Source of the DNA: an uncultured Candidatus Binatia bacterium
Lineage (GTDB): Bacteria > Desulfobacterota > Binatia > HRBIN30 > CADEER01
Reading direction: 5' to 3'
DNA length: 64,000 nt
Assembly: GCA_965216585.1 (NCBI GenBank)
Contig: CBDCGC010000002.1
Coordinates: 483,160 to 547,159 of the forward strand
Below, in pieces: positions 1 through 52,175 of the stretch. The position numbers and the translations under genes are program-made. The first letter of the stretch is position 1. Each line of letters starts with the position of its first letter. The notes under the pieces were generated by a model. That model had not been told where the DNA came from and did not search any database. It saw only the letters and a program-made list of their open reading frames with translations.

Positions 1-300
1 TCCGGCGTGCACGTACAGCGATAGGCCTTGCCGGATTCGAGTAGTTGCTCGATGTACGGCTGGTAGTTCTGGCCGCGCTCGCTCTGGTAGTAGGGCCCGT
101 CATCCCATTCGAGCCCGAGCCAGCGCATGCCGTCGAAGATCGCCTCGATCGACTCCGGCGTCGACCGCTGGCGGTCGGTGTCCTCGATCCGCAGAACGAA
201 AGAGCCGCCGGCGTTGCGGGCGAGAAGATAGTTGAACAACGCCGTACGGGCGCCGCCGATGTGCAGGAATCCGCTGGGACTGGGGGCAAAACGCGTGCGC
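1..300 (-). CDS. gltX: Glutamyl-tRNA synthetase, N-terminal part; start codon at 300, gene continues past the window start
   Basis: Reverse-strand translation from ATG at 300 reads [29 protein letters not shown]...IEDTD, the class I HIGH motif and GluRS N-terminus. Not in the ORF track because it is truncated by the window edge. Confidence 0.85.
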
Positions 301-335
301 ATCTCCGCCGACTAGCAGAGTCCGCGGCGAAATCA

Positions 336-450
336 ATCGCTCCGCAGATGCGGGGGGTTCGGTGGTCCGTTTGTTTATCCGCAGATGAACGCCGATGGCC
401 GCAGATGGGGGTTCTGGATGTCCCGGGGTTTGTCCGCAGATGAAGGTGCG
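336..450. repeat. Left terminal inverted repeat of the RM/Abi island; 4 copies of CCGCAGATG (342-350, 379-387, 399-407, 435-443)
   Basis: Segment tccgcagatgaacgccgatggccgcagatgg is the near-exact reverse complement of 9455-9485. Spurious ORFs on both sides share the peptide SADERRWPQM. Confidence 0.6.
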
Positions 451-467
451 CTGTGCGGGCTCCTTTT

Positions 468-3400
468 CTAACCGCCGGGCGAAGCGTCGGTCCGCTGCGG
501 GAAGCGCGTCCGCACGTACTCCTCCGCGTCCGTCTCACCGAGGCGCACCGAGCCCGGACCGCTGCGTACGTAGAAGTCGCCTCGCTCGCTCTTCTCCAAA
601 CCCTTCCAGCGCAGAAAGACGGGCTCCGGGCTGCGCTGGCAGGAGACCAGACAGACGGTCTTGCCCGCTACGATCTGCGTGCGCGGATCGATGCAGGTGC
701 CGGCACGGTCGCCCAGGCCGTTGCGCACGGCCTGGGCGAGGTGGAGCATGAACTTGTCGTCATTCTCCAGCTGGTCGTGCGCAATGCCGACCGGAGTCTT
801 GTCGTCGTCGACGCCGATCAGGAGATCTCCGCCCTCCGTGTTGAGGAAGGCCGCCACGGTCTTGAGGACCGCATGCGTGATCAGCTTGTCGTCTTTTCGG
901 TTCTCCTTCAGGTTCCAGCGCAGGCTCGACTTGAACTCGAGGGTCTTCGATTCGTCGAGCTTCAGCAGCTCCTCGGCGCGGCGGTGCCGGCGCATGTAGT
1001 CGTCGAAGAGCGCGTTCTTGAAGGCCTGGCCGAAGCTCGGGTCATCCGTGATGCGGCGGTAGAGCTCGAAGTTCCGTTCCACGATCTCCTGGATCTTGTC
1101 CTCGACCTTGGGGTCGAAGGTGAGGCGGACGTTCTCTCGCGTGTTGACTCGGGCGCTGGCATCGAGGCCCGCGTCGCCCTCCAGGGCCGAGGCGATCTGC
1201 TCGAGGGTGACGCGATCCTCGGGGCCGAGATCGAGCCCAAAGCGCTCGTTCAGCTCGGCGATGATGTGCGAGAGTGCTTCGATCTCGCCCTCGCCGCCGC
1301 TGTGGTGCGTCTTCGTGCGCATGGGGTCGAGCTGGCCGACGCGGCGGTCGAGGGCAATTTCCCCCGAGCTCGTCTGGCGGATGCGATACGACTCCATGTC
1401 GATGTTCTGCTGGACCTCGCGCGGCAGCTCCTCGCGCGGCGCCGGTACGAGGCGCCGCAGGTAGCGGGCGAAGACGTAGAGCTTCTCGAGGTCGGCGTCC
1501 GCGAACGGGATGATCTGCGCCAGGAAGGCGTAGAGGCGAGCATAGTCGGTGAGCTGGCTGCGGCAGTCCTGCTGCTCCTCGTCCGAGAGCTCCGCGAAGC
1601 GCTCGCGCACGGGATCGAGCGCCGCGTAGAGCTGGTCCTGACTCGCCTTCTTGGCGAAGTAGATCCGCGCGAAGGCCTCGACGTCGGTCTCGCCAAAAAC
1701 CGCGAAGTCGAGGAGCCGCCCCTGCACTTCGTAGAGCAGGTTGGGATCGGTCGCCTCGGAGAGCAGCGTCACGTCGTAGTAGGGCTCGAAGGCGCTGCGG
1801 ATGTCATCTGCCTGGTTGGCGAAGTCGAGCACCATGGTGCCGGCTTTGGCCGGGTGAGTCCGGTTCAGGCGCGAGAGTGTTTGCACCGCGTTCACACCGC
1901 CGAGCTTCTTGTCCACGTACATCGTGTGCAGCAGCGGCTGGTCGAAGCCCGTCTGGAACTTGTTGGCGACGACGAGAAAGCGAACGTCCGGCTTCTCGAA
2001 CTCCGCCGCCGTCTGCCGCTCGCCGATCACCTTGTCCTGGCCTTCCGAGTTCATGCCCGACTCGGTGTACGGCTTGCCGCCGTCCTCGACGGTGCCCGAG
2101 AAGGCCACCAGCGCCCGCCAGGGATGCCCCTTCTCGGCCAGCGCCTCGTCGAGCGCCCGCTTGTAGCGCACCGCGTGCAAACGGGAGCGCGTCACGATCA
2201 TGGCCTTGGCCCGGCCGCCGATCTCACCCTGCACCTGCTCGGCAAAGTGCTCGACCATGATGCGGATTTTCTCGTTGATCGCGTGCGGGTGGAGATCGAC
2301 GAAGGACTTGAGCAGGTAGGTGGCCTTCTGCTTGTCGTAGTGCGGGTCGTCCTCGATCTTCTTGAGCAGCCGCCAGTAGGTCTTGTAAGTGGTGTAATGC
2401 TCGAGGACGTCGAGGATGAAGCCCTCTTCGATGGCCTGCCGCATGCTGTAGAGGTGGAAGGGCTCGAACTTGCCATCCGGTCGCTTGCGACCGAAGAGCT
2501 CGAGCGTCTTCTGTTTGGGCGTCGCGGTGAAGGCGAAGGTCGAGAGGTTCGGAAGCTGCCCGCGCTTGCGCATCTCGTCCTCGACGATGTCGTCGAGCTC
2601 CTCCGCGGGCGTGGCCGCGCCTTCCTCCTCCGCGGCGGCCTCGTCGAGGCTCCCCGCCGAGAGCACCGCCTTCAGGCTCTTGCTGGTCTCGCCGGACTGC
2701 GACGAGTGCGCCTCGTCGACGATCACGGCAAAGCGCTGGCCCGCCAGGGCGCCGATCTCCTTCGCGATCACCGGGAACTTCTGCAGCGTCGTGACGATGA
2801 TGGTCTTGCCGGCCTCGAGCGCCTGGCGCAGCTGGCGCGAGGTCTGGTCGATGTTCTCCACTACGCCGAGCGTCTGCTCGAGCTGGCGCACCGTGCTCTG
2901 GAGCTGGCGGTCGAGTACCCGGCGGTCGGTCACCACCACGATCGAGTCGAAGACGCGCCGGTCCTGCGCGTCGTGGAGCGTCGAGAGCTGGTGGGCCAGC
3001 CAGGCGATGGTGTAGCTCTTGCCGCTACCGGCCGAGTGCTGGATCAGGTAGCGCTCGCCCGGGCCGTGGCCGCGCGCGTGTTTCACCAGGCTGCGCACAC
3101 AGTCGAGCTGCTGGTAGCGCGGAAAGACGAGAAAGCGCTTGCCCGTCTTGCGCCCGTGCGGGTCCTCTTGCTCGACCTCGTGGATGAACTGGCGCACCAG
3201 GTCGAGCACACTGTCGCGCGCCCAGGTGCGCTCCCACAGGTAGCTGGTGGCGAATCCGGTCTGCGTCGGCGGGACGGGGGGATTGCCGGCGCCGCCGAAG
3301 CGGCCCCGGTTGAACGGAAGGAAGCGCGTCTTCGCGCCTGCGAGGTGCGTGGCGACGAACACCAGCTCCGGGTCCACCGCAAAGTGCGCCAGGCAGCGCC

Positions 3401-4028
3401 CGTAGGCGAAGAGCGGCTCGCGCGGATCGCGATCCTTCTTGTACTGGCGGATCGCGTCCTCGACCGTCTGGCCGTTCAGAGGGTTCTTCAGCTCGGCCGT
3501 GAAGATCGGGATGCCGTTCAGGAAGATGGCCAGATCGAGGCTCTGTTCGCCCTTCTCGCTGTAGTGGAGCTGGCGTACGATGGCGAAATGGTTGGCGGCG
3601 TGCAGGCGCTGGAGCTCCTCGTTGAGTCCGCTGGCCGGCCGGAAGTAGGCGAGCCGAAACTTGCAGCCCGAGTCCTTCACGCCATTGCGCAACACGTCGA
3701 GCGCGCCGCGCCGTCCGATCTCGCGCGCGAGTCGCGCCAGGAAGCGCGTCTTCACCTCATCTTTGTGGTGCTGACGCAGCTCCTTCCACTCCTCGGGTTG
3801 AGTGGCGAGCAAGAAGTCGAGCACGTCTCCGGGCAGCAGACAGAGCCCGCGGTCGTAGTCCTGCTTGCTATCGCGCCGGCTGTAGCCCCCCGGCACGGGC
3901 TCGCCGTCCCACCGTGGCGGCGTCTCTCGAACCTGCGTCGCATGCTCGGGGCACGCATCCGGCCCATGCCCGAGCAGCGCGCACTCGATCGCCTCCTCGA
4001 AGGCCCGCTCGGATACGTCCACCGTCAC
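468..4028 (-). CDS. hsdR: Type I restriction enzyme R subunit (HsdR) with a C-terminal AlbA_2/Schlafen-like domain
   Basis: 1186 aa. N-terminal nuclease region, helicase motif I HSAGSGKSYTIAWLAHQL, DEAH box VIVDEAHSSQ. C-terminal ~160 aa (ESKTLEFK...FLNTEGGDLLIGVDDD...) resembles the AlbA_2 putative DNA-binding domain. Start overlaps the hsdS stop (GTGA). Confidence 0.9.
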   Translation of the reverse strand: MTVDVSERAFEEAIECALLGHGPDACPEHATQVRETPPRWDGEPVPGGYSRRDSKQDYDRGLCLLPGDVLDFLLATQPEEWKELRQHHKDEVKTRFLARLAREIGRRGALDVLRNGVKDSGCKFRLAYFRPASGLNEELQRLHAANHFAIVRQLHYSEKGEQSLDLAIFLNGIPIFTAELKNPLNGQTVEDAIRQYKKDRDPREPLFAYGRCLAHFAVDPELVFVATHLAGAKTRFLPFNRGRFGGAGNPPVPPTQTGFATSYLWERTWARDSVLDLVRQFIHEVEQEDPHGRKTGKRFLVFPRYQQLDCVRSLVKHARGHGPGERYLIQHSAGSGKSYTIAWLAHQLSTLHDAQDRRVFDSIVVVTDRRVLDRQLQSTVRQLEQTLGVVENIDQTSRQLRQALEAGKTIIVTTLQKFPVIAKEIGALAGQRFAVIVDEAHSSQSGETSKSLKAVLSAGSLDEAAAEEEGAATPAEELDDIVEDEMRKRGQLPNLSTFAFTATPKQKTLELFGRKRPDGKFEPFHLYSMRQAIEEGFILDVLEHYTTYKTYWRLLKKIEDDPHYDKQKATYLLKSFVDLHPHAINEKIRIMVEHFAEQVQGEIGGRAKAMIVTRSRLHAVRYKRALDEALAEKGHPWRALVAFSGTVEDGGKPYTESGMNSEGQDKVIGERQTAAEFEKPDVRFLVVANKFQTGFDQPLLHTMYVDKKLGGVNAVQTLSRLNRTHPAKAGTMVLDFANQADDIRSAFEPYYDVTLLSEATDPNLLYEVQGRLLDFAVFGETDVEAFARIYFAKKASQDQLYAALDPVRERFAELSDEEQQDCRSQLTDYARLYAFLAQIIPFADADLEKLYVFARYLRRLVPAPREELPREVQQNIDMESYRIRQTSSGEIALDRRVGQLDPMRTKTHHSGGEGEIEALSHIIAELNERFGLDLGPEDRVTLEQIASALEGDAGLDASARVNTRENVRLTFDPKVEDKIQEIVERNFELYRRITDDPSFGQAFKNALFDDYMRRHRRAEELLKLDESKTLEFKSSLRWNLKENRKDDKLITHAVLKTVAAFLNTEGGDLLIGVDDDKTPVGIAHDQLENDDKFMLHLAQAVRNGLGDRAGTCIDPRTQIVAGKTVCLVSCQRSPEPVFLRWKGLEKSERGDFYVRSGPGSVRLGETDAEEYVRTRFPQRTDASPGG

Positions 4029-5428
4029 GAGGCTTCCTCCCAGACATCGATCTTGCCCGTCACCGCGGCGGAGACCAGTGCAGTTCGAAACTCGCGCAGT
4101 CGCTCAATTCCCAGCTCCACGGCTGCAATGAGTGCCGTCATGTCTTTGAGCGCTTTGTCGACAGTCTCCACGATTGCACGCTGCTCCTCGACTGGCGGGA
4201 TGAAGAGCACGAGCTCTTGGATGGTGTCCTGCGCGATGTTCTGCATGGAACCGCTGGCACCCGTAGCCTCTCTCTCGAACTGAAAGCGAGACACAAGCGC
4301 CGATAGTGCGTAGATCAGATATGGCGGAGTCATGAAATCGCCTCGAAGTCGAATCCGGTACAGCTTGTCACACAGGAGTAGTCGAGGCCTCACACTGCCA
4401 ACCACGGCCGCACTACCCAGAAGTTGGCGCGTATTCGCACGAGACATTAGGATGTCTTCTGGTCGGATCTCGTACTCGGGCCGAACAGTTTCTCCCGGCG
4501 GGAGTGCTTTGTGTTCGCGCTCATCGAACTCCGCCCCATTCACGCAGCCGACTTTCAGAACTCCCCACTCCTCCTGATCCGCCTGTCGATTGTCGCAAAG
4601 TGGGCTCCAGCCCTGTTCAATCGAAGCAACGACAGTCTTGAGCCTTGAGACCTCCCAATGCGCCGGGATCTTGCCCAGCCACTCGACACCGGAGTCCCTC
4701 AGGGGGACGTTCGGGTCGAGGCCCTGGGTGACGGCGCGGGTGATGAGGGCGGTGCGCTTCTCCTGGAGCAGCTCGATCAGCCGCTCTTTCTTCGCGACCA
4801 ACACATCGATTTTCGCCGTCTCGCGATCCAGGAACGAAGCGATCGCCTTCTGCTCTGCAACGGGTGGCACGGGAAAGTTCGCGCCATCGATCCAACGTTT
4901 CGAGAGACCGAAGCGAGTGATCCCAGTTGCCGCCGCACGAAACTGATCTCGGACACCCGCGGCCGAAAATGCACGACCCAGATAGCTCCCTGAAAGCCGC
5001 AACCGGTCAGGTCTGATATGCGCCAGATGATAACCGCAGACGACTCCGTCGATGCCAGACCCAACGTACGCAGGCACAGCGATGTCGTCCCACGATTCCG
5101 AATCCTTGGTGACAAGGACGTCACCTTCGATCAGCGAGAATCGCCGAATCTCATCAGGGGACGCGGTCGCTTCCATGAAGTCGATCTCGGGCTCGATCAC
5201 GTCGTTGTAGTATACGTCGACGTAGTTGCAGAGGCGGACGAGATCTTCTCCCTCCTTCCTCTTCTTGTCCACGCTACTGAGTTGCACGGCGGCCAGACGC
5301 TTGAGTCGATCTACGCCCCACGCGATCGGGATCTCGCCGAGCCACTTGATTCCGGAATCTCTGTACTCCGGATACGCTCGAAATCGGCGCGGTCGTGCCA
5401 ACTGAATCTCTTCAATCGCTTCAGCCAT
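4025..5428 (-). CDS. hsdS: Type I restriction-modification specificity subunit (HsdS), two target-recognition domains
   Basis: 467 aa. Repeated TRD-like halves with conserved central and C-terminal coiled regions. Sits between hsdR and the Abi pair. The true start may be downstream of 5428, because the ORF overlaps the abiEii tail. Confidence 0.8.
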   Translation of the reverse strand: MAEAIEEIQLARPRRFRAYPEYRDSGIKWLGEIPIAWGVDRLKRLAAVQLSSVDKKRKEGEDLVRLCNYVDVYYNDVIEPEIDFMEATASPDEIRRFSLIEGDVLVTKDSESWDDIAVPAYVGSGIDGVVCGYHLAHIRPDRLRLSGSYLGRAFSAAGVRDQFRAAATGITRFGLSKRWIDGANFPVPPVAEQKAIASFLDRETAKIDVLVAKKERLIELLQEKRTALITRAVTQGLDPNVPLRDSGVEWLGKIPAHWEVSRLKTVVASIEQGWSPLCDNRQADQEEWGVLKVGCVNGAEFDEREHKALPPGETVRPEYEIRPEDILMSRANTRQLLGSAAVVGSVRPRLLLCDKLYRIRLRGDFMTPPYLIYALSALVSRFQFEREATGASGSMQNIAQDTIQELVLFIPPVEEQRAIVETVDKALKDMTALIAAVELGIERLREFRTALVSAAVTGKIDVWEEAS

Positions 5429-6369
5429 CTTGCCCTTCTAGCCGCCCTCGCGGCGCCGCTGCCCACGGCCCGCCGGGGGGCCAGTGCCGGTCGAACGGGG
5501 TCCCGGCCAGTATTGCCTCGCGCACGGGGACCGCCGAAGAAGCTTCGTACGCGCTCGCCGATCTCGTCAATCGTCTGGGGCGGTGACTGACGAAAGAGCC
5601 CTCTGCGAAGATACGCGCGCCATCGCGCTTCGACGTCCGGATCGGCGCAAAAGGCGGATGTCAGAACATCGGGGATCTCGGAATTCCAGGCCGTTCCGCG
5701 TCGGTCGAAGCATCGCTCGATGGCTGTCCGCAGCGCTGTTCCTTCGAATGGGAACGCCTCCGAAAGGGCCCAGATATCGTGGAAGTCCTTCATGCGGCTG
5801 TTGCGCCGGCCGAGTTGGACCATGGCCTCAAACTTCTCCGCGACAGTAGCTACTCGCGGATAGGCATGCACGACGGGCGCCGGCAAGCCGTCGATGAGGG
5901 TGGGAATCTCGGTGGCATCAGGCGCGGTGGACAGTGCATCTCCGAAGCCAAAGTCGACCTGGAGCCGAATCCGGGCCTTGCCCAGGTATGCGCGCACGAC
6001 GGCGCGTTGCCCCGCATATCTCTGCTCGTCACGGATGGCCTCGATCGTGAGGGTGTCGAGGTCGAGCTCCAGACCGTCTTCCGGACATGGCTGGCGACAG
6101 ATGTCCTGCATCGTCTCCCGCACTGCGGCTTCATCGGGCGGTCCGACCGCCAGCAGGTCCACATCGCGCGTGGCGCGGTACGGCTCTTCCATCCACAGCG
6201 TCAGCAGTCCGGCTCCTTTCAGCGTGCAGCGGTCGCGCTGCCTCGATTCGCCGAGCCGGAAGAGAAAGCGCTCGCAGGCGTAGCGCACGAGGAAGGGCTC
6301 GAACTCCATCTCGCGTCGTTGCGCCTCGCGAAGCAAGCGCGCCTTGATGGACTGTGCGATCGCGCTCAC
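5311..6369 (-). CDS. abiEii: AbiEii-family nucleotidyltransferase toxin (type IV TA / abortive infection)
   Basis: Region MEFEPFLVRYACERFLFRLGE...RDVDLLAV...KFEAMVQLGRRNSRMKDFHDIW is typical of AbiEii/DUF1814 NTase. Proposed GTG start at 6369-6367 overlaps the abiEi stop (GTGA). C-terminal tail is low complexity and overlaps hsdS by ~118 bp. Confidence 0.65.
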   Translation of the reverse strand: MSAIAQSIKARLLREAQRREMEFEPFLVRYACERFLFRLGESRQRDRCTLKGAGLLTLWMEEPYRATRDVDLLAVGPPDEAAVRETMQDICRQPCPEDGLELDLDTLTIEAIRDEQRYAGQRAVVRAYLGKARIRLQVDFGFGDALSTAPDATEIPTLIDGLPAPVVHAYPRVATVAEKFEAMVQLGRRNSRMKDFHDIWALSEAFPFEGTALRTAIERCFDRRGTAWNSEIPDVLTSAFCADPDVEARWRAYLRRGLFRQSPPQTIDEIGERVRSFFGGPRARGNTGRDPVRPALAPRRAVGSGAARAARRARWLKRLKRFSWHDRADFERIRSTEIPESSGSARSRSRGA

Positions 6370-6971
6370 GGTGCGAGCACTTCCAGGGACGCGCGCAGGC
6401 GTCGACTCGGTAGGACGTCCAGAACGCGCATCAGCGAATTGGTGGACACCTTCCGCTGTCGCAGGGCGTCGTGCAGCGCCTCGAGTGCGGCCTCGCGGCC
6501 AATTCGGCGCTCGAAGCGGAAGCAGTCGACGATGGTTCGCGCTGGAGACGTGATTCGGGCGGGAACACCTTCGAAGGTGGTGTTCTGGATTCCGTACGAC
6601 CACGCCGCACCGCTGAAGCGAATCAGGCGGACGCGGATGCCCGGGACGCGCGGCGGCTCGGCCTTGTGGTGGATGGCGAGCCAGACTTGGTGGGGGAGCT
6701 GAGTGCCGATCTCATGCACCTGCAGCGCCGAGAGGAGGCAAACGACGGCCTCCGGAACCCGTGCACAAGCCGCGGCCAGGGTGTAGTGCTCGGTGGGCTC
6801 CGCTTCGGCGAGGCGGTAGAGACCTCGGGCGACTCGCTCGACTGCCCCCGCCTTCACCAGACGGCGGACTTGGTCATAGGAGATGCCCAGGGTTTCTAGC
6901 TGGCTCGGACGAAAGAAAGTCCCGATCCCGGCGCGGCGAAGCTGCTCTTCATCGAGATTGGAAGAGTCCAT
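6366..6971 (-). CDS. abiEi: AbiEi-family antitoxin / transcriptional regulator
   Basis: 201 aa. N-terminal wHTH-like region (GISYDQVRRLVKAGAVERVARGLYRL) and C-terminal domain typical of AbiEi. Immediately upstream of the AbiEii NTase with a 4-bp overlap. Confidence 0.65.
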   Translation of the reverse strand: MDSSNLDEEQLRRAGIGTFFRPSQLETLGISYDQVRRLVKAGAVERVARGLYRLAEAEPTEHYTLAAACARVPEAVVCLLSALQVHEIGTQLPHQVWLAIHHKAEPPRVPGIRVRLIRFSGAAWSYGIQNTTFEGVPARITSPARTIVDCFRFERRIGREAALEALHDALRQRKVSTNSLMRVLDVLPSRRLRASLEVLAP

Positions 6972-6983
6972 TCAAAAAAACCC

Positions 6984-7068
6984 GGCATGGCGAAGCATAG
7001 TGCCGAGAATATCAGACAAATGGGACTGGGCACAACGAGAAAATCCCGGCACTTCGCGCAATAGTGCC
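6984..7068. promoter_or_regulatory. Two 21-bp GGCA-N13-TGCC elements (6984-7004, 7048-7068) in the abiEi upstream region; candidate AbiEi operator
   Basis: ggcatggcgaagcatagtgcc and ggcacttcgcgcaatagtgcc share palindromic ends and the suffix atagtgcc, 43 bp apart, in the 127-bp gap between the hsdM stop and the abiEi start. Confidence 0.35.
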
Positions 7069-7098
7069 TGTAGTTCCTGAAGCGTGTTTGGAAGCTTC

Positions 7099-9267
7099 CT
7101 ACCCCGCCACCTCGCGCAGCATGGCCACGATGTCCTTCTCGATTGCCTGGATGTCGGCCTCGATTTCCTCGAGCGGCCGCGGCGGCAGATATTCATAGAA
7201 GTAGCGGTTGAAGTTGATCTCGTAACCGACGATGCCGACCTCCCCGTCCTTGGCGTCGCGGCGGCTGGTGTCGATCCAGGCGTCCGGCACGTGGAACCGA
7301 ACCTCGCGCTCGAAGAACGCCTCGATGGTCTCGGCGAGGGGCACACTCTCGGTGTCGCGCAGCTCGGGGTCGGGCTCGGGATTGCCATCCTTGTCGCGGC
7401 AGATCTCGGCATCTTCGTTGCGTTCGGAGAGCGCCGAGAGGATCGCCTTCTTCACCGGGGCGGCGAGCTTCACGTCGGCCGCGCGCACAGCCTTGGCCAG
7501 CACCTTCTCGAACGCTGAGCGATCGGTGAAGAGCGTGTCCGGCAGCGTGGTGAGGAGAGCGCGGATCGCCTCTTGCTTCGCCCGGCCCTCGGACTCCTCC
7601 TTCTCCTTCGCCGGCCCCTTGCGCTTTTTCGAGCGCGCGAGGTTGGTGAAGGCGCGCTCTTCCTCGAGCCGCGCGATGCGCTCGGGGCTGGCCTGGAAGT
7701 CGAGGCGCAGCGGACGCTCGACGGTGATCTTGCGGAAGCCGAAGCGCGTGGTCGGGAAGGTCTTGCTCACGACCACCTTTCGCTCCTCGCCCTCGCCGTC
7801 GTTGGCGCGCTCAGCGTGACCGGGCGCGGCGATGCGGCGCGCTGCGTCATCCGCGAAGTTGCGGAGCAGGGCCAGGACCTCGCCGGCTTTTTCGAACGGA
7901 ATCTCGCGGCGTTTGTCGCCGAGGCTCTTGCGCATCGGCTGCCAGAAGCGGATCGACTCCTCGGTCGACGTCGCGTCGATGAGCTGCACCTGCCCCTTGC
8001 GCTCGGGCGCCTTGCGGTTCGTCAGCACCCAAATGTAGGTGGCGATGCCCGTGTTGTAAAAGAGCTGCTCGGGAAGCGCGATGAGCGCCTCCAGCCAGTC
8101 GTTCTCGAGGATGTAGCGGCGGATCTCGCTCTCGCCGCTGCCGGCGTCACCGGTGAAGAGCGGCGAACCGTTCATGATGATCGCGACGCGCGAGCCTCCG
8201 GCCGCGGGCTTCTTCATGTGCGCCAGCATGTGCAGGAGGAAGAGGAGCTGACCGTCGCTAATGCGCGGCGTGCCCGGCCCGAACCGTCCGGCCGCGCCGC
8301 GCGCGTGCTCGTCCTCCACCGCCTCCTTGTCGCGCTTCCAGTCCTTGCCGTAGGGCGGGTTGGCGATCAGGTAATCGAAACCCTGACCCTCGTGCCGGTC
8401 GTTGGAAAGGACGCTGCCGAAGAGGATCCGCTCGGCATCCTCCCCCTTCTCCGATTTCATGAAGAGGTCGGACTTGCAGATCGCAAACGTTTCGGGGTTC
8501 ACTTCCTGTCCGAAGAGGTGGACCTCGGCATCGGGCGCGATGGGCTCGCGCACGATCTCGCCATTGCGATGGACCCCTTTGGACACATGCTCCTTCGCGA
8601 TCGTCAGCATGCCGCCCGAGCCGCAGCACGGATCGTAGACGCTGCGCACGATGCCCGGCTTGCGAAGGCGCTCCTCGTCACCGGCAAACAGCAGGTCCAC
8701 CATCAGATGCACGACGTCGCGAGGCGTGAAGTGCTCGCCGGGGTTTTCGTTGAGTGCCTCGTTGAAGCGGCGGATCAGGTTCTCGAAGAGAGTTCCCATC
8801 GCGTGGTTGTCGAGCCCGCTCTGCGGGTCCGGACTGAGGTCCACGTTTTTGAATCGCTCGACGACCTGGAAGAGCAGACCCGCCTCGTCGAGCTTGCTGA
8901 TCGTGTTGTCGAAGTCGAATTTCTCCAGCACCTCGCGCATGTTCGCACTGAAGCCGGCGATATAGTTGCGCAGGTTCTCGGCCAGGTGAGGGGCATCGTC
9001 GCAGAGACGCTCGAAGTCGAAGTGGGAGGTGTTGTAGAAAGCGAAGCCGGCGGCGCGCCGGAGCTGTTGGTCGAGGTTCTCGAGGCCCTTACCGCGCAGC
9101 TCGGCCCGGCGCGCCAGCACCTTCTCCTTCTTGTCCGCCAGCACACAGTCGAGTCGGCGCAGAACGGTGAGTGGCAGGATTACGTCCTGATACTTTCCGC
9201 GCTTGAAGGTGTCGCGGATGAGATCCGCGACACCCCAGATGAAAGTCTCGATCTGGCTCTGATTCAC
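7099..9267 (-). CDS. hsdM: Type I restriction-modification DNA methyltransferase subunit (HsdM)
   Basis: 722 aa. HsdM N-terminal domain (MNQSQIETFIWGVADLIRD...) and N6-adenine MTase core including NPPYG-like LIANPPYGKDW. Confidence 0.9.
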   Translation of the reverse strand: MNQSQIETFIWGVADLIRDTFKRGKYQDVILPLTVLRRLDCVLADKKEKVLARRAELRGKGLENLDQQLRRAAGFAFYNTSHFDFERLCDDAPHLAENLRNYIAGFSANMREVLEKFDFDNTISKLDEAGLLFQVVERFKNVDLSPDPQSGLDNHAMGTLFENLIRRFNEALNENPGEHFTPRDVVHLMVDLLFAGDEERLRKPGIVRSVYDPCCGSGGMLTIAKEHVSKGVHRNGEIVREPIAPDAEVHLFGQEVNPETFAICKSDLFMKSEKGEDAERILFGSVLSNDRHEGQGFDYLIANPPYGKDWKRDKEAVEDEHARGAAGRFGPGTPRISDGQLLFLLHMLAHMKKPAAGGSRVAIIMNGSPLFTGDAGSGESEIRRYILENDWLEALIALPEQLFYNTGIATYIWVLTNRKAPERKGQVQLIDATSTEESIRFWQPMRKSLGDKRREIPFEKAGEVLALLRNFADDAARRIAAPGHAERANDGEGEERKVVVSKTFPTTRFGFRKITVERPLRLDFQASPERIARLEEERAFTNLARSKKRKGPAKEKEESEGRAKQEAIRALLTTLPDTLFTDRSAFEKVLAKAVRAADVKLAAPVKKAILSALSERNEDAEICRDKDGNPEPDPELRDTESVPLAETIEAFFEREVRFHVPDAWIDTSRRDAKDGEVGIVGYEINFNRYFYEYLPPRPLEEIEADIQAIEKDIVAMLREVAG

Positions 9268-9450
9268 GACATACTCGGGGCAGAAATTCCTTGGCGCCGG
9301 AACAATAGCCGTTCGGCGCGCTCGACGACAAACGTCGGCAGTCGGCCGAGCGGCGCGAAAGCTCGGCCGACGCTATCCCAATTCCGACGTCGTTGACATC
9401 TCGTCGAAGCGACGAGCACTCGCTCGCGCAACGATCCGGACGACCGGACG

Positions 9451-9520
9451 CACTCCATCTGCGGCCATCTGCGTTCATCTGCGGACAAATCAATCGGACA
9501 ACCGGACCCCCATCTGCGGA
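9451..9520. repeat. Right terminal inverted repeat of the RM/Abi island; 4 copies of CATCTGCGG/T (9456-9464, 9466-9474, 9476-9484, 9511-9519)
   Basis: Reverse complement matches the left repeat at 379-410 (tccgcagatgaacgc[a/c]gatggccgcagatgg). Confidence 0.6.
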
Positions 9521-9524: not shown

Positions 9525-10370
9525 CTACCGCCACGGTGGTCTCTTCACCGCGGGTCCGCGGAACGTCGAGTATTGTGCCGCTGACATCTCGAAGAGATCG
9601 CGAAGGGTCTCCGGTTCGGCGGCGAAGTGTTCTTCGTAGGCGGCCAATCTGCGGCGGAGATCCGCGGATAGGTCCGTGCAGAGGTCGGCGACGTCGATTC
9701 CGTGTGCCGCACCGAGCAGACACATGGCGAAGTAGTCGAGCTGGGCGTCGTTGTTCTTGATGCGCCAGGTCTCGGACGCCGATAGCGCCTCGCAGCGATC
9801 GGTGGCGACGCGGACGGGAACGACTTTGTCGCAGCCGCTGCCCTCCGCGGCGGGTGCGACAAAGATGATCGCATCCTCGCCGTCGAGCCGTAGCGGATGA
9901 GGAATGTAATGCGCCGAGGTGTAGCCGAGAGTGTCATACAGCGATCGGCGATAGTCTGCGGATCTCCCCGAGGCGGATCGGCTCAAGCGGCGCAGCTTGC
10001 CGGCGACGTCGCCCTCACTGAGCTCGACGAGCCTTTGCATCGCGTCGGTCGAATAGCCCTCGCGCCGCGACAACAGCGGCAAACCGGTCGCATCGACGTC
10101 GAATGCCAGCGCCTGCGGAGAACGCCCCATCTCTTCGGCCGCCACAGCGCGGGCGGTGATCGGCCGGCTCCTGTCGCGCCGGTCGACGACCGCCGCCAGC
10201 CGGTCGGCATGTAGGGACTGCTTGGCGAATCCGCGCCACGCGTTGCTCAGCTCCACCCGGCGCGGACGGTGCAACACCAGGTCGCCATCGCGGCCGAGGC
10301 CGTAGGCGCTCATGAGCGAGCCGTAGCCGATGACCGTCGTCCATTGCGACATCGCCGCCAACGCTCCCAT
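9525..10370 (-). CDS. ChaC/gamma-glutamylcyclotransferase-like family protein (hypothetical)
   Basis: 281 aa. N-terminal VIGYGSLMS motif resembles the GGCT/ChaC YGSL signature. Remainder unassigned. Confidence 0.45.
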   Translation of the reverse strand: MGALAAMSQWTTVIGYGSLMSAYGLGRDGDLVLHRPRRVELSNAWRGFAKQSLHADRLAAVVDRRDRSRPITARAVAAEEMGRSPQALAFDVDATGLPLLSRREGYSTDAMQRLVELSEGDVAGKLRRLSRSASGRSADYRRSLYDTLGYTSAHYIPHPLRLDGEDAIIFVAPAAEGSGCDKVVPVRVATDRCEALSASETWRIKNNDAQLDYFAMCLLGAAHGIDVADLCTDLSADLRRRLAAYEEHFAAEPETLRDLFEMSAAQYSTFRGPAVKRPPWR

Positions 10371-11623: not shown

Positions 11624-12700
11624 ATGCATCCCGAAGTGAGTGAGGAACAAGCCGAGTTGAAAACCTCGGTCGAGCGTTTCTGGCGCCAGCAGGTGAACGC
11701 CGAGAAGCTGCGGGAGTGGGAGAGCAACGGCCCCGACACCGGGACCTGGCAGACCATCGCCGCATTGGGTTGGTTCGGCATCGCCGTGCCGGCGGCGATG
11801 GGAGGCAGTGGCCTGGGCATCAGCGAGGCCGCTTGCGTGCTCGAAGAGTGTGGGCGCGGCTTGCTGCCGCCGCAGATCACCCACGCCATCCGCGCCGTGT
11901 CGACACTGGCGCATCTGGATGCCGCGGCTCCCGAGCTGGCGGAGCTCGCCAGCGGCGCGCGCCGGCTGACACTGGCGATCGACGAGCGCGCGGCGCGCTC
12001 TGAACGACACTTCGCGACGCGCCTGGACGCGAATCGAGTGAACGGTGAAAAATGGTGCGTCGTCGATCCGGCGGCGGACTGGCACCTGGTGGCCGCCCGT
12101 GCCGGTGCCGGCGATGGCGAGATCGCGCTGGTGCTGGTCGACGGTAGCGCGGCGCAGACCTCGACGTTGCGCACTTTCGACGGCGGCGTGCAGGCAGCGG
12201 TGCGCTACGACGACGTCGCCGTGGCGCGTGTCGTCGCCACGGCCGGGCCGGCGGCCGAGACCTTGGCAAGGGTGCGGCGCCTGCAGACCGCCTTGGCGCT
12301 GGCGGAAATGCTCGGCGGCATGCAAGGGGCGCTGGAAGCGACGGTCGACTACGTCAAAGAGCGCGAGCAGTTCGGCCAGAAAATCGGCGTCTTTCAGGCC
12401 GTCCAACACCAAGTCGCCGACATGTCACTGGCCTATACGGCGTCGCGACATCTGGTGTGGCGCGCCGTCAGCAGGCTGGCCGTCGATGCGGCGCAGGGCG
12501 TCGATCTGGAAACCGCCGCCGCCTTCGTCGCGCGGTCGTTCAAGGACGTCACGATGACGGCGCATCACCTGCACGGCGGCGCCGGCTACGTCGTCGAGCA
12601 CCCGCTCCACTACCACTCGGAGCGCGCCCAGGCGCTGGCGATCCGCTACGCACCGGAAGCGCCGGCGTTGAGCGCTGTTGCAGGTTCGTTGCTCGACTGA
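11624..12700 (+). CDS. Acyl-CoA dehydrogenase family protein (second, divergent subunit)
   Basis: ATG at 11624 in the frame of MHPEVSEEQAELKTSVERFW... C-terminal GGMQGALEATVDYVKEREQFGQKIGVFQAVQHQVADM is the ACAD C-terminal domain. The longer 697-aa ORF in another frame is an artifact. Confidence 0.7.
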   Translation: MHPEVSEEQAELKTSVERFWRQQVNAEKLREWESNGPDTGTWQTIAALGWFGIAVPAAMGGSGLGISEAACVLEECGRGLLPPQITHAIRAVSTLAHLDAAAPELAELASGARRLTLAIDERAARSERHFATRLDANRVNGEKWCVVDPAADWHLVAARAGAGDGEIALVLVDGSAAQTSTLRTFDGGVQAAVRYDDVAVARVVATAGPAAETLARVRRLQTALALAEMLGGMQGALEATVDYVKEREQFGQKIGVFQAVQHQVADMSLAYTASRHLVWRAVSRLAVDAAQGVDLETAAAFVARSFKDVTMTAHHLHGGAGYVVEHPLHYHSERAQALAIRYAPEAPALSAVAGSLLD

Positions 12701-12712
12701 TCGGCGCTTCGC

Positions 12713-13066
12713 TCAAACTTCTTCGAGCTCTTCATCGAGCGGCAGCGACAGGCTCGGTTTGAGCACCGTGTCGAGCAGGGCGAGGACGAGGCTGGCCAGC
12801 AGGAGTCCGAGCAGTCCCGGCCAGGAGTAGTCGTCGATCTGCGTTGCGCCGGTGATGAGGGGCAGGGCGGTGAGCGCGATGGCGGCGACGACGGCGGTCA
12901 TGGCCAGCGGATTGGCCGACACCTTGGCCCGCACCGCCCGGCAGATGAGCGACGAGAGGAGAAACAGACAGAGTGCCGTGAAGAAGTAGTATGGGAACAG
13001 GATCAACCAGTGCATCTGGTATTGCTTACTCGTACCGCCGGCAATGTCAACGATTGCCGCCGGCAA
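12713..13066 (-). CDS. Small hydrophobic membrane protein (hypothetical)
   Basis: 117 aa with 3 predicted TM stretches. Start may be the internal MHWLILFPYYFF. Confidence 0.35.
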   Translation of the reverse strand: MPAAIVDIAGGTSKQYQMHWLILFPYYFFTALCLFLLSSLICRAVRAKVSANPLAMTAVVAAIALTALPLITGATQIDDYSWPGLLGLLLASLVLALLDTVLKPSLSLPLDEELEEV

Positions 13067-13072
13067 GGCGTG

Positions 13073-15097
13073 TCATTGTTCGACCAGATGCATCGGCTGC
13101 AGAATCTCGGCTGGGATGTCGTCGACGAAGCGCGACGGCTTCGACAACACCATGCCGGCGGCGCGATCGTAGAGGTTGATCGGGTAGCAGATGTAGAGGT
13201 TCTGCTTGGCACGTGTCGCCGCGACATAGAGCAGCCGCCGTTCCTCCTCGAGCTCCTCGTCGTCGTGCATGCTCTGCATCGACGGAAAACGGCCATCGAC
13301 GGCCCAGAGGATGAAGACGCTGTGCCATTCGAGGCCCTTGGCCGAGTGGATCGTCGACAGCGTTACCAGACCCTCCGGCTCGTCGACCGCCATGACGTCG
13401 CCGACGCTGTCGCTCGGCGGCTCGAGAGCCATGTCGGCGAGCAGCGCTTCGAGGCTGCCGTAGCGGGCGGCGATCGAGATCATGTGCTCGAGGTCCTTGC
13501 CGCGCTTCGGGTAGTCGTCGCGGTGCAGGTGCTTGAGATGCGGGTCGTAGTACTGGAGGACGAGGTTGAGCTGTTCCTCGGGTTTGACCCCGGCCCTGCC
13601 GAGCTGGCGCAGCAACCCGGCCAGGGCGCGCAGAGCAGTCGAGTAGGAGCGGCCGGTCTCGGCTTCGAGAACCTCGGCGGCGTCGGTGCTCGCCGTCAGC
13701 TCGGCCGTCAGCGCCTGTGCCCGGCGCGGGCCGATGCCCTCGAGGAGGAGGAGGACGCGATGCCACGAAACGGCATCGCGCGGGTTGGCGACGACGCGCA
13801 GGTGGGCCAGGGCGTCTTTGACGTGGGCGGTTTCGATGAACTTGAAGCCGCCGCGTTTGACGAAGGGAATGTCGTGCCGGGTCAGCTCGAGCTCGAGATC
13901 GAAGGAGTGGAAGCTGGAGCGAAAGAGAACGGCGATCTCGGGCAGCTCTACGCCTTGCTCGCGCAGCTCGAGAATGCGCTGGCAGACGAAGCGAGATTGG
14001 TAGTTCTCCCCTTCGGCGGCAATCAGTAGCGGCAACTCGCCGTCGCCCTTGCGTGTGAAGAGCGTTTTCGAGTAGCGCTCGCGCGCCTTGGCAATGATGT
14101 GATTGGTGACGTCGAGAATCGGTTGCGTGCTGCGGTAGTTCTCTTCGAGGGCAATCACCTGCGCACCGGGGAAGAGATCGGGAAAGTCCATGATGTTGCG
14201 AAAGCTGGCGCCGCGGAAGGCGTAGATGCTCTGGGCGTCATCGCCGACCGCCATGACGTTGTCGTGCTGCGCGGCGAGCAGGCGGACGATCGAGGCCTGC
14301 AGCGGGTTGGTGTCCTGGTACTCGTCGACCATGATGTAGCGGTAGCGCCTCGACAGCTTGTCGCGCACCTCTTCCTGCGTTTCCAGCAGGGTGTGAAGCT
14401 TGAGCAGGAGATCGTCGTAGTCGAGGAGCTGGCGCTCCTCCTTGTAGGTGACGTACTCGCTCTGCAGGGCGATCAAGTCGTCGGCGTGGTCGATGAGGTG
14501 GGAGTAGGAGTCCTCGAGAAGATCGGCGAGGGGCCGCGACTTGTTGACCGCCATGGAGAAGATCGAAGCGATCGTCTGCTTGCGCGGAAAGCGCTTTTCC
14601 TTCTTGTCGAAGCCGAGGCGAGCGCGGGCGAGGTTGATGACGTCCTCGGAGTCGCCGCGATCGAGAATGGTGAAGCCGCTGTCCATGCCCAGCGCCTTGG
14701 CGTTGCGGCGCAGCGCGATGTTGGCAAACGAGTGGAACGTACCGCCGGCGACTTCGTCGCAGCGTCCGTCGAGCAGGGTGCTGGCGCGGCGCAGCATTTC
14801 CGCCGCCGACTTGCGGGTGAAGGTCAGCAGCAGGATCGAGCGCGGATCAATTCCCAATTCGACCAGGCGGGCGACGCGAAAGACCAGGGTTCGCGTCTTG
14901 CCGCTGCCGGCGCCGGCGATGACGAGGACCGGACCTTCCAGCGCCGTCGCCGCCGCCAACTGCGCCTCGTTGAGCAGTTCTTGGTAGTCGATGCGAAAGC
15001 GCGCCTCGGGTTGAGGTTGCGGCCGCAGTACGTAGGTGCCTGGTCGTGACATGATGCTCCAGCGCTCGACTTTGGCGGGACGAGGTCCGACGGTCAA
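13073..15097 (-). CDS. uvrD: ATP-dependent DNA helicase UvrD/PcrA family
   Basis: 674 aa. Walker A AGAGSGKT, UvrD-like helicase motifs throughout. Confidence 0.85.
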   Translation of the reverse strand: MTVGPRPAKVERWSIMSRPGTYVLRPQPQPEARFRIDYQELLNEAQLAAATALEGPVLVIAGAGSGKTRTLVFRVARLVELGIDPRSILLLTFTRKSAAEMLRRASTLLDGRCDEVAGGTFHSFANIALRRNAKALGMDSGFTILDRGDSEDVINLARARLGFDKKEKRFPRKQTIASIFSMAVNKSRPLADLLEDSYSHLIDHADDLIALQSEYVTYKEERQLLDYDDLLLKLHTLLETQEEVRDKLSRRYRYIMVDEYQDTNPLQASIVRLLAAQHDNVMAVGDDAQSIYAFRGASFRNIMDFPDLFPGAQVIALEENYRSTQPILDVTNHIIAKARERYSKTLFTRKGDGELPLLIAAEGENYQSRFVCQRILELREQGVELPEIAVLFRSSFHSFDLELELTRHDIPFVKRGGFKFIETAHVKDALAHLRVVANPRDAVSWHRVLLLLEGIGPRRAQALTAELTASTDAAEVLEAETGRSYSTALRALAGLLRQLGRAGVKPEEQLNLVLQYYDPHLKHLHRDDYPKRGKDLEHMISIAARYGSLEALLADMALEPPSDSVGDVMAVDEPEGLVTLSTIHSAKGLEWHSVFILWAVDGRFPSMQSMHDDEELEEERRLLYVAATRAKQNLYICYPINLYDRAAGMVLSKPSRFVDDIPAEILQPMHLVEQ

Positions 15098-15442
15098 TCG
15101 CTATCCGGCTCTTGACCGGGCTTCGGTCGGCCTCGGTCCATCGGTGTGCGGAATACCGTACGAAACGCCCGTACGGGAATGCTCATCCTTTCTCACACCC
15201 GATCTCAGCGACGGCTCGTCGGTTTCATCATTGGGTTCGGTCGAGTCGCGATCAAGTCTCGTCGAATGTTCTGCTTGTCGTGATAAGGTGTTCCAGCGTC
15301 TCATCGACGGCCGCAGGCGGTGCATCGTTGTGCAAGCACTGGTTGCGAAAGCCCTCGATGTCGCCCTCGCCCGGACGCTGCTCCTCGCCGTCCACGGCGA
15401 GGTTTGTAGTGGCAACCCATCGCGGGGCCATGACGACAAATG

Positions 15443-16252
15443 TCAATCACATTGCAAAGAAAGAGCCTCCTCGATCCACGCCGCGAGTCTGCCTGCAATA
15501 ACCTCGACCCGGACTCCGTGTTCGTTAGAGTTTTCGTCGAACTTGGAAATGGAAACCAGCCAACAGCGCGTGGCCCAACGGAATTCCGTGTAGCGGTGCG
15601 GGCGTGGAAAAAACCGCCTTTCCCACAGCGCGGCCAGGTCGCCACGAAATCCGCGCAACACCTCGGGCGTAGCCTCGGAGCGAATCGCGGCGATCGGGCC
15701 AGTCGCGTCGTTGTATCGACGCATATTGACCTCCGCATGAGCTGAGCGACCCCAATCGCAAGTGAAGGAGTAGCGTCCGTTGGGCAAGTCAGCGGCAAGG
15801 CGCGCTGTTGAGCACGCGGTAGCTGTCGCGCCCAAGAACCGTTGCCACAGCGGATTGTCGAGGTCGGGCGTCGGCATGGAGGTCCGCGTAACCGTAGGCC
15901 AAGGCGTGAGCGTGATAGTCGGCGTGGCCGTTGGTGTCGGCGTTGGGCAACCGTTCAGGGATGCACGGACCGCCGCGATGATCTCAGAGATTGAGATCTT
16001 CCGATCAAAATCGAGATCGCTCGCCGAACACACGGCGTCACTACCGAGTGCGATGCCAATAGTGCGTGTGAGTTCAGCAACGGATACATCTCCGCTTCCG
16101 TTGCAGTCACCTGGACAGGCTGTGAGGGGGTGTGGCGAGAGTCCCAGTGTGACTGCCAACGCGATAAACACTCGGCTCCAACAAAATCGAGACTCACAAC
16201 GCTGCGACATCTTTGATCCCACGATTGCTTGCCTGACCCATGGCAGTGTCAT
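15443..16252 (-). CDS. Secreted protein with N-terminal dockerin-like Ca-binding repeat and a PT linker (hypothetical)
   Basis: Signal-like N-terminus, CPGDCNGSGDVSVAELTRTIGIALG, linker PTPTPTATPTITLTPWPTVTRT, then an unassigned ~150-aa domain. Confidence 0.5.
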   Translation of the reverse strand: MTLPWVRQAIVGSKMSQRCESRFCWSRVFIALAVTLGLSPHPLTACPGDCNGSGDVSVAELTRTIGIALGSDAVCSASDLDFDRKISISEIIAAVRASLNGCPTPTPTATPTITLTPWPTVTRTSMPTPDLDNPLWQRFLGATATACSTARLAADLPNGRYSFTCDWGRSAHAEVNMRRYNDATGPIAAIRSEATPEVLRGFRGDLAALWERRFFPRPHRYTEFRWATRCWLVSISKFDENSNEHGVRVEVIAGRLAAWIEEALSLQCD

Positions 16253-16401
16253 TGCTGACTACACGCAGGAAACGAACACGAGAACTGATACAGGCTCTCA
16301 CACTTGCCCGTATGGATTGCAAGGCCGATCCTTCAGGACTGTCCGGGTGGCAGCTGCACAGGCTAAATTGGCTTGAGGGAAATCGGGACAGACCCCTCTC
16401 C

Positions 16402-16603
16402 GAGCATTTAACCTCAAAGAAAAAATAATCCGCGAGGGAGAACGCGTCAGAGAGTGCCAGATGTGGCCGAGCGCAGCTTTCGGCAAGCGGAGTGTAGTCC
16501 ATCCTACATGAGCATTGCCGAGGGCGAGCACGGCCGCAGATGGCGCTCTATGGCGCGAGCTCGTGGCGTTTCTCGCCGTGGATTATTTTCTCTTTGAGGT
16601 TAA
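16402..16603. repeat. ~42-bp imperfect inverted repeats (16402-16445 / 16561-16603) around a ~115-bp spacer, in the lower-GC region upstream of tusA
   Basis: cctcaaagaaaaaataatccgcgagggagaacgc versus gcgtttctcgccgtggattattttctctttgagg (reverse-complement match ~85%). Spacer contains GGCCGCAGATGG. Confidence 0.5.
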
Positions 16604-16729
16604 GTGACTGAATCACTCTAAGTTTCTCGAACAAGGAGGGGCCTGTCTCCATTTTCCCGGCAGCGATATCGTCATCCGGTCGCTGGATCTTGCACGGGCG
16701 CATGCCGAGAATGCTGGAGATGGCGCACG

Positions 16730-16981: not shown

Positions 16982-17200
16982 CGGCTACAGGCTTCTTCCC
17001 GCGCCATGCCGCCAAGCGAGACTCGAGGGATGATACGAGAAGCGAAGGGGAGTGACTACCTTTTTCGCTTGAGCCAACTCGTCGCGAAGTTCATCACTTC
17101 TTGGCGCGAGAAGTGTTCGTCCCTCGAGGGCAATGCGCCGTGCTCATTGAGTTTCTGCGAAGCACGTCACTGTATGATCGCATCCCGGTCTGGGTCGACC

Positions 17201-48576: not shown

Positions 48577-48584
48577 CAGCTCAT

Positions 48585-52174: not shown

Positions 52175-52175
52175 T

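Follow-up and report, generated by a model that had tools for sequence, protein, structure and literature searches.

The stretch of DNA analysed here (the window, 64,000 nt of a contig from an uncultured Candidatus Binatia bacterium) carries a 9.2-kb defence island, an operon encoding a Type I restriction-modification (RM) system and the AbiE pair, which is enclosed by two short inverted arms built from repeats of the motif CCGCAGATG (core CGCAGAT). Comparison with a relative shows that arms and operon together form one insertion into a former spacer of about 20-35 nt between two co-oriented genes, a 281-aa open reading frame (ORF; orf281) and gltX. The genome comparisons described below also show that this arm is shared by many phyla, where it is mostly found in inverted pairs, and the only gene which it encloses recurrently encodes a putative PD-(D/E)XK nuclease of the GxxExxY family (PF13366, PDDEXK_3). 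We tentatively favour the reading that the island is a cargo-carrying, non-autonomous member of a GxxExxY-associated family of inverted-repeat elements, which may well be right, while we stop short of calling it probable. A non-autonomous cassette, or the remnant of one, had been among the possibilities raised in an earlier note on this DNA and remains the best reading.

Insertion of the island between orf281 and gltX

A homologue of orf281 with 56% identity (P0002) sits on contig L122, where two acyl-CoA dehydrogenase genes are followed by the orf281 orthologue and, 34 nt later, by gltX, which is the synteny of the window without the island. Since the same orf281 and gltX lie only 34 nt apart in L122, the arms and the island (about 341-9520) represent an insertion in the window. 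The 16 nt ahead of the gltX ATG are conserved between the two contigs (CTGCTAGTCGCCAGGA in L122 and CTGCTAGTCGGCGGAG in the window). At the window junctions, the orf281 stop codon is followed after 4 nt by the right arm, and the left arm is followed after 22 nt by the conserved 16-mer; by this comparison the outermost motif copies sit at the insertion junctions. The repeats that the earlier note saw as precisely bracketing the genes thus do bound a discrete insertion, and the empty junction for which it proposed to look exists in a relative. The island is co-oriented with both neighbours, and transcription can therefore run through it. Inspection by eye revealed no target-site duplication, as the window flanks ...TAGCCAA and GCGATTG... 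share no direct repeat; with empty-site relatives as diverged as L122 (56% amino acid identity), a duplication of 2-3 bp could escape detection. A solo hairpin between orf281 and gltX is likewise absent from L122, the only informative relative.

Architecture of the arms

The motif CCGCAGATG is present in eight exact copies in the 64-kb window, seven of which are found in two clusters, on the plus strand at 342, 379, 399 and 434 and on the minus strand at 9456, 9476 and 9511, with one isolated copy at 16534. In 100 dinucleotide shuffles the mean count was 1.16 and the maximum 5, and none of them (0/100) reached 8. The shorter core CGCAGAT forms no further cluster across the 64-kb window, which thus holds only two arms, and the doubt whether the motif might simply be a common word of the region can be set aside. 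The earlier note had counted four copies at each end; this is correct for the left end, where all four are exact, but at the right end three are exact and the fourth, ACGCAGATG (9466-9474, minus strand), has one mismatch.

An inverted alignment of 341-408 with 9520-9455 yields 60 matches, 5 mismatches and 4 gap columns (60/65 aligned bases, 92%), which gives an arm length of 66-68 nt. Further inward (409-444 versus 9454-9419) identity drops to the background level of 12/36, and outward it is 15/39. The near-exact inverted segment of 30 bp described before is therefore real and in fact longer, and the inverted repeats of about 100 bp assumed at the same time are too long. Both arms share one layout, i.e. 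an outer CCGCAGATG, a spacer of 25-28 nt (consensus GGGGGTyCGGTkGTCCGwTTG(a)TTTr) and three tandem 10-mers (CCGCAGATGA-ACGCmGATGG-CCGCAGATGG), and TRF reports a period of 10 in both. Their parts are as follows.

341..408, plus strand: left arm core, with CCGCAGATG (342), a spacer of about 28 nt (GGGGGGTTCGGTGGTCCGTTTGTTTAT) and the triple 10-mer CCGCAGATGA-ACGCCGATGG-CCGCAGATGG (379-408)
409..444, plus strand: inward continuation of the left arm by a direct, diverged copy of its spacer unit, with the fourth CCGCAGATG (434-442) at the end
9455..9520, minus strand: right arm core, with CCGCAGATG (9519-9511), the spacer GGGGTCCGGTTGTCCGATTGATTTGT and the triple 10-mer CCGCAGATGA-ACGCAGATGG-CCGCAGATGG (9484-9455)

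The outermost bases of the two ends are TCCGCAGATG and CATCTGCGGA. The direct duplication inside the left arm (352-389 and 407-444, 74%) has no partner on the right side. In addition, the 10-mer AAATCAATCG occurs on the same strand just outside the left arm (330-339) and in the right-arm spacer (9487-9496), which may be due to chance (about 1%) or may be the trace of a further partial arm. A BLAST search of plasmids with the left arm gave no match, and a metagenome scan with arm spacer plus motif returned a single match, an unrelated hairpin element (L121).

Occurrence of the arm across phyla

We scanned one genome per species with the pattern CCGCAGATG-N11-CCGCAGATG and obtained at least 136 matches at no fewer than 116 loci; unless stated otherwise, the counts in this and the following section refer to the matches listed. 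A third 10-mer fills the 11-nt gap in 66 of the 136 matches (60 loci); by our calculation, about 0.3% of random 11-mers would pass this test. From these 60 loci we derived the consensus tttA(t/a)CCGCAGATG(r)(a/c)CGCAGAT(nn)CCGCAGATG(r)a, and the window arms TTTATCCGCAGATGAACGCCGATGGCCGCAGATGG and TTTGTCCGCAGATGAACGCAGATGGCCGCAGATGG fit it with their TTTAT/TTTAA lead (TTTAT at the 5' end of the left arm) followed by CCGCAGATG-rmCGCAGATnn-CCGCAGATG. Arm loci are found in Verrucomicrobiota, Acidobacteriota, Planctomycetota, Latescibacterota, Abditibacteriota, Gemmatimonadota, several Pseudomonadota, Desulfobacterota, Cyanobacteria and others, often with genome-specific flanks and with several copies per genome in Abditibacterium, Salinisphaera and metagenome-assembled genomes of Vicinamibacterales. 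Neighbouring clusters form 36 convergent, 13 divergent and 24 direct pairs; the loops of inverted pairs typically measure 9-400 nt, those of pairs that enclose no gene 10-400 nt, and many convergent pairs, 9-200 nt apart and capable of forming a hairpin, lie in intergenic DNA. Selection by motif biases such a sample towards tandem repeats of period 10 and period 20, and some of the loci are unrelated arrays or coding sequence. A tblastn search of all island proteins against the motif loci found no relative. The idea that the motif is a regulator site specific to the island is not supported, as the same arm accompanies unrelated genes without Type I RM or AbiE in many phyla and five related islands lack it.

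Close relatives differ in whether an orthologous site carries a short member of the family, as seen around an Akkermansiaceae locus (L068). This locus carries a full element in both the MarR-DCC1 and the DCC1-FtsY spacer. In relatives with 93% DCC1 identity, the first element has a decayed right arm and 15 nt stand in place of the second, and in relatives with 72% and 66% identity the MarR-DCC1 spacers of 92 nt and 55 nt, respectively, contain no element. No target duplication was visible by eye at the polymorphic site of L068 compared with L137. ORFs located between successive elements are ordinary genes (MarR, DCC1-like, Pup ligase, Fpg).

Arrays with some resemblance to the arms were seen elsewhere. 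Several Acidobacteriota loci (L022 2835-3181, L016 510-736, L045, L064, L119) contain arrays of 10-16 copies of a 20-nt unit, GTTACGACGGCCCGCAGATG, that includes the same 8-mer, and the IMG/VR viral contigs L001 and L004 carry similar period-10 arrays (ATGTCCGCAGATGTCCGCGGATG... and GACCGCAGATGACCGCACTT...).

Association of the arms with GxxExxY nuclease genes

The ORF enclosed by an inverted pair encodes a GxxExxY nuclease at four loci (L028, L009, L047, L108). A fifth GxxExxY gene (L095) lies between two direct clusters, the arms around another (L070) are CGCAAAT variants, and a 32-aa GxxExxY remnant inside a pair of only 110 nt (L093) resembles a deletion derivative. In the 833 kb of loci, all GxxExxY genes or remnants (7/7) thus have flanking arms, and five of the seven are at most 150 nt away from a cluster, a distance within which just 6.4% of the sequence lies (binomial P of about 2e-5, our own calculation). 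At L108 the motif arrays around the gene are inverted and long, with 24 and 14 copies. A Y1_Tnp gene enclosed by CGCAGAT arms was not encountered in the loci examined. Two further inverted pairs enclose other cargo, namely an Mrr-type enzyme that matches a Type IV restriction model (L105), and a Fic protein together with a 96-aa ORF that match the SoFic/PDC-S04 defence models (L039).

For a sample chosen by protein instead of motif, we inspected eight genes found by tblastn of GxxExxY proteins against plasmid records. Inverted tandem-oligomer arrays were present in six of the eight, five with flanking arrays and one with a hairpin just downstream. The flanking oligomers are specific to each lineage: TTCACCACAGAGGACGCAGAGGACACGGAG and its complement in Bacteroides, (A)ACACAGAG units in Bernardetia, TTCACGCGAAGGCGCGAGGACGCGA in Sphingomonas, (GGACTGAAGAA)n arrays in Gemmatirosa and a 16-nt inverted repeat in Treponema; the hairpin, made of CGCGGAT triple 10-mers, belongs to a second Gemmatirosa gene, and the genes from Fusobacteria and Persicobacter have direct or weak repeats only. 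In all five annotated plasmid records (5/5; L129 and L132-L135) the GxxExxY gene is co-oriented with both neighbours at spacers of tens of nucleotides, and it splits gene pairs such as fabD and fabG, radA and the gene of an FAD protein, or ade and the gene of a mannose-1-phosphate guanylyltransferase. Because inverted arrays appear in this protein-chosen sample too, the link between GxxExxY genes and inverted tandem-oligomer arms is, on the evidence of these loci, a general one, and the CGCAGAT arm is one variant.

A single-protein scan of viral contigs recovered no GxxExxY relatives. Literature searches on the arm sequence retrieved no matching paper, those on GxxExxY and PF13366 retrieved only statements of unknown function and multiple transfers, and one on intervening-sequence proteins yielded nothing relevant; in these searches on the arm sequence, GxxExxY and PF13366 we found no earlier description of the arm family.

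Related RM islands without arms

The closest HsdM homologues are 84-89% identical and stand in other genomic contexts, and since the flanking ORF reaches only 56%, the RM module must have been acquired horizontally. Five related RM islands were inspected (L124, L125-127, L128, L147), and none has CGCAGAT clusters at its borders. L124 (hsdM...Fic...hsdR) shows no inverted repeat of any kind across its borders; L125-127 has the order hsdM-abiEi-abiEii-hsdS, three extra genes and hsdR; in L128 a tRNA is followed by hsdM-abiEi-KwaA-KwaB-abiEii-hsdS-hsdR; and in L147 McrBC is followed by the same five genes as in the window. DNA similarity ahead of hsdM begins only about 50 nt before the ATG among these islands. 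Because all five lack arms, the comparison shows that the arms are no part of the RM lineage.

The related islands differ in what they hold between hsdM and hsdR. In L128 the Kiwa genes (KwaA/KwaB) are placed between abiEi and abiEii (4821-8029), L125 has a 479-aa ORF, a DUF488 gene and a 275-aa ORF at 15371-18668, and L124 has Fic and two ORFs of unknown function at 12031-15883. The hsdM...hsdR frame thus seems to act as a cargo slot.

Origin of the island

If the island is a cargo-carrying member of the GxxExxY-associated family, the RM/AbiE operon would occupy the place of the element loop between the two arms, having replaced or joined the usual nuclease gene. The arms would be the cis-acting part, recognised by a function supplied in trans either through the phased 9-10-bp CGCAGAT(G) sites or through a hairpin or cruciform formed by both arms. 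A GxxExxY-type nuclease with its gene elsewhere in the genome would be the most likely agent, and movement resembling transposition, or else homing or gene conversion into empty hairpins, might insert or copy the DNA between the arms.

Several observations weigh against this reading. The RM module evidently moves without arms as well. There is no visible target-site duplication, and no second copy of arms plus island was found; movement of the whole 9.2-kb unit is what we infer. Neither the 64-kb window nor its arms contain a GxxExxY gene or remnant, the orientation of GxxExxY relative to the motif varies (L009 is opposite to L028), and at one Gemmatirosa locus the hairpin stands beside the gene and not around it. 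GxxExxY is without known biochemical function, and no solved relative was found by sequence. Furthermore, the loci (at least 116 listed) were picked by the motif itself, and in an empty-site relative as distant as L122 neither a target duplication nor a former solo hairpin could still be read.

It is possible, if in our judgement somewhat unlikely, that the arms served merely as a landing pad, i.e. that a short hairpin of the family first entered the orf281-gltX spacer and that RM/AbiE was later integrated centrally by an unrelated route, for instance when foreign DNA was captured in the repair of a break at the tip of the hairpin or cruciform. In that case the arms would mark a site that is fragile or attractive, and the 9.2-kb composite would be immobile. 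Such a history would fit the related RM/AbiE modules, which are free of arms and lie at other kinds of sites (L128 beside a tRNA, L147 beside McrBC), as well as the frequency of short empty elements that enter spacers between genes, the diverse cargo between arms and the lack of both target duplication and transposase, and it would take one event fewer than capture elsewhere followed by transposition. However, arms accompany GxxExxY so regularly, at unrelated sites and in unrelated phyla, that arm-gene-arm units appear to move together, and no relative that retains the postulated solo hairpin was found, L122 being the only one that could be informative. We favour a cargo-carrying member over a landing pad because arm-nuclease-arm units recur as compact insertions at unrelated sites.

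That the arms act mainly on transcription or RNA, with mobility as a secondary matter, appears improbable. They might pair in a read-through transcript from orf281 through the island into gltX and be cut by RNase III like an rRNA intervening sequence, or they might bind a host protein that shields the inserted genes with the essential gltX still being expressed. The island and the GxxExxY cassettes are indeed co-oriented with both neighbours at tight, operon-like spacers, and some pairs (L021, L046, L075) are flanked by A- and T-tracts reminiscent of bidirectional terminators. Yet the single arms have no significant fold (z between -0.7 and +0.3), neither arm contains a sigma-70 or terminator consensus, and only two of the five arm mismatches are transitions, hence there is no G-U bias; a loop of 9 kb is unlikely for an RNA stem, and the conservation of one 7-8-mer across phyla would be unexpected for a mere stem. 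No Rfam family and no tRNA was found in the window either, so that a known structured RNA or a tRNA-linked attachment site is not supported. An insulating or processing role at the RNA level could nevertheless coexist with the cargo reading or the landing pad, and would then explain the strict co-orientation with the neighbours.

The ends of the island carry several short repeats in inverted orientation and in unequal number (four exact copies on the left, three and one variant on the right), for which they had been likened to those of Tn7-like or Mu-like elements. A non-autonomous transposon of this type is nonetheless very improbable, as the island differs in the length of the unit, in its termini, in target duplication and in its genes: the repeat unit, CCGCAGATGr, measures 9-10 bp and not about 22 bp as in TnsB or MuA sites, the termini are neither TG...CA nor the 5'-TGT...ACA-3' of Tn7-like elements, a 5-bp duplication is missing, no tnsA-E, MuA/B or transposase gene lies inside, and the gene recurrently associated with the arms encodes a 125-aa PD-(D/E)XK nuclease and not a DDE transposase. 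We give even less credit to chance, to a common genomic word or to a repetitive extragenic palindromic (REP) sequence of the genome that happens to lie on both sides. REP-type repeats do exist in this genome, at a locus with a REP-associated tyrosine transposase (RAYT; 53.5-54.8 kb), but their sequence differs from the arms, which are inverted, 92% identical over 65 aligned bases and located exactly at the insertion junctions; the shuffles never reach eight copies, and the 64 kb hold no other cluster.

Comparison with known systems

Furuta, Abe & Kobayashi (2010, PMC2853133) described RM units that are bounded by imperfect long inverted repeats and lack a transposase, and regarded them as putative mobile forms of a transposon-like kind; in Xanthomonas oryzae the repeats match at 60/65 positions, an empty site exists in a relative, and mobilisation in trans was proposed. 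The island shares with the units of PMC2853133 the imperfect inverted repeats at its bounds, the empty site and the lack of a mobility gene inside, but those units have 8-bp target duplications and repeats specific to each unit, whereas the window shows no duplication and has tandem 10-mer arms that belong to a cross-phylum family with a recurrent cargo of its own. The island is thus a further case of this type of RM unit, without the 8-bp duplication.

The resemblance to Tn7-like and Mu-like elements ends with the several short repeats per inverted end. A likeness to integron attC sites can be seen in imperfect inverted-repeat sites of 60-250 nt between promoter-less co-oriented genes (e.g. 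L068) and in exchangeable cargo; in contrast to integron cassettes, the gene of the arm family lies inside the inverted pair and not before it. No GTTRRRY core was seen by eye in the arms, which have TTTAT/TTTAA-CCGCAGATG instead, no formal attC model being run, and no integrase was found among the scanned ORFs or nearby.

Miniature inverted-repeat transposable elements (MITEs) and other non-autonomous elements with terminal inverted repeats, such as the Correia elements of Neisseria, are short, intergenic and multi-copy, and their presence is polymorphic. The arm family resembles them in its inverted repeats at the insertion ends (4 nt and 22 nt from the junctions defined by L122) and, outside the source genome, in its multiple copies, its insertion polymorphism and the coexistence of gene-bearing with shorter empty forms. 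It differs from MITEs in that neither a target-site duplication nor a DDE transposase partner is found and that its arms are arrays of a 7-8-mer conserved across phyla, while the terminal repeats of MITEs are lineage-specific. As the only recurrent gene enclosed by arms, GxxExxY would be a candidate for the MITE-type partner. In REP/REPIN-RAYT systems, a small nuclease-type gene is flanked by inverted short repeats that also form gene-less hairpin doublets, and the arm family likewise has inverted repeat copies around a nuclease gene and intergenic inverted doublets; however, its protein is of the PD-(D/E)XK type (PF13366) and not Y1/HUH, its repeat unit is not palindromic, and its gene is multi-copy.

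Intervening sequences of rRNA genes consist of a small ORF in an inverted-repeat stem that is inserted co-oriented into a transcribed unit; the hosts of the arms are instead intergenic spacers of protein-coding operons, and their cargo reaches 9 kb. Free-standing homing endonuclease genes usually have no inverted arrays beside them, and cargo next to them can hitch-hike by gene conversion. GxxExxY genes recall them in their patchy occurrence between conserved co-oriented genes (e.g. fabD and fabG, or radA and its neighbour) without transposase or target duplication, but the GxxExxY cassettes do have inverted arrays, and GxxExxY has no known cleavage activity or target.

Genes inside and beside the arms

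The gene content given in the earlier note is confirmed by Pfam and PADLOC. All genes between the arms lie on the minus strand, in the operon order hsdM-abiEi-abiEii-hsdS-hsdR, and Pfam and PADLOC searches of all enclosed ORFs revealed neither a transposase, as the note had stated, nor an integrase. For the neighbours, gltX was correctly named on the left, with its match in the correct frame, whereas the label 'ChaC-like' for orf281 on the right is unsupported, as this ORF has no family match in Pfam, NCBIfam or PADLOC.

1..302, minus strand: gltX N-terminus, left flank (PF00749, E=4e-46; ATG at 302-300)
468..4028, minus strand: hsdR, last gene of the operon (Pfam HSDR_N, ResIII, SWI2_SNF2, T1R_D3-like, SLFN_AlbA_2; PADLOC REase_I)
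4025..5428 (ORF as listed), minus strand: hsdS, specificity subunit (Pfam Methylase_S; PADLOC Specificity_I, E=1e-121)
5311..6603 (ORF as listed), minus strand: abiEii, nucleotidyltransferase toxin (Pfam AbiEii, E=4e-40; PADLOC, E=1.5e-89)
6366..6971, minus strand: abiEi, antitoxin/regulator (Pfam AbiEi_4; PADLOC AbiEi, E=2e-59)
7099..9267, minus strand: hsdM, Type I methyltransferase, first gene of the operon (Pfam HsdM_N and N6_Mtase; PADLOC MTase_I, E=1.7e-268)
9525..10370, minus strand: orf281, right flank (homologues P0001-P0050)

The hsdM start is located 188 nt inward of the right arm, and the hsdR stop 25 nt from the innermost left motif copy. By analogy with homologues of 312-315 aa in L125 and L147, the true start of abiEii is probably near 6369, and that of hsdS probably lies further downstream, at about 5400, because the listed ORF overlaps the end of abiEii. 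The C-terminus of hsdR (window 468-1000) is a Schlafen/AlbA_2 fusion that also occurs in the related islands L124, L125 and L147.

The REP/RAYT locus (53500-54800) is of the classical type and contains an ORF on the plus strand (53500-54207) with a weak match to the IS200-like Y1_Tnp and with HVH and YVRDNPV motifs. Inverted tandem arrays flank this ORF, and their 25-nt palindromic unit, GGGAGGGCGAGTCGCCTGACGAGCC, is distinct from the CCGCAGATG arms (2.8 copies at 53518-53643, and 8.7 copies with a period of 62 nt at 54240-54780). Another tandem array with a 62-nt period and a different unit (4 copies, 89%) is found just upstream of this locus, at 52174-52475. The ORF at 48552-50105 has a signal-like N-terminus and about 18 tandem 20-aa repeats, RTRKPTKTxRPTRTPIxxxx, which account for a 60-nt-period array at 48672-49736, and the adjoining ORF at 46157-48391 has PTRTP-rich repeats, too.

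Implications

What is new here is the placement of the arms in a cross-phylum tandem-oligomer family, their tie to the orphan GxxExxY nucleases, the empty hairpin derivatives and the other defence cargo. A broader proposal, which we put forward as conceivable but doubtful, is that GxxExxY genes and their inverted arrays (CGCAGAT, CACAGAG, CGCGAAG, GGACTGAAGAA and others) constitute an undescribed cross-phylum class of selfish cassettes, in which the nuclease would recognise the arms or their hairpin and would spread itself, gene-less hairpins and hitch-hiking defence cargo (Type I RM with AbiE, Mrr, SoFic), all without a transposase and without duplicating the target; in that case the 9.2-kb operon of the window would be a passenger of such a vehicle.

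Transfer of defence systems between genomes is far more frequent than the known vehicles can account for. Transposase-less RM units with inverted repeats have been an unexplained 'mobile form' since 2010, and the island now ties such a unit to a widespread repeat family. This offers a lead to a candidate function for the large orphan nuclease family PF13366, and the inverted tandem-oligomer arms might serve as a signature for mining genomes for new cargo, defence genes included. In addition, the arms point to a possible route by which defence operons may enter tight housekeeping operons without silencing the essential gene downstream.

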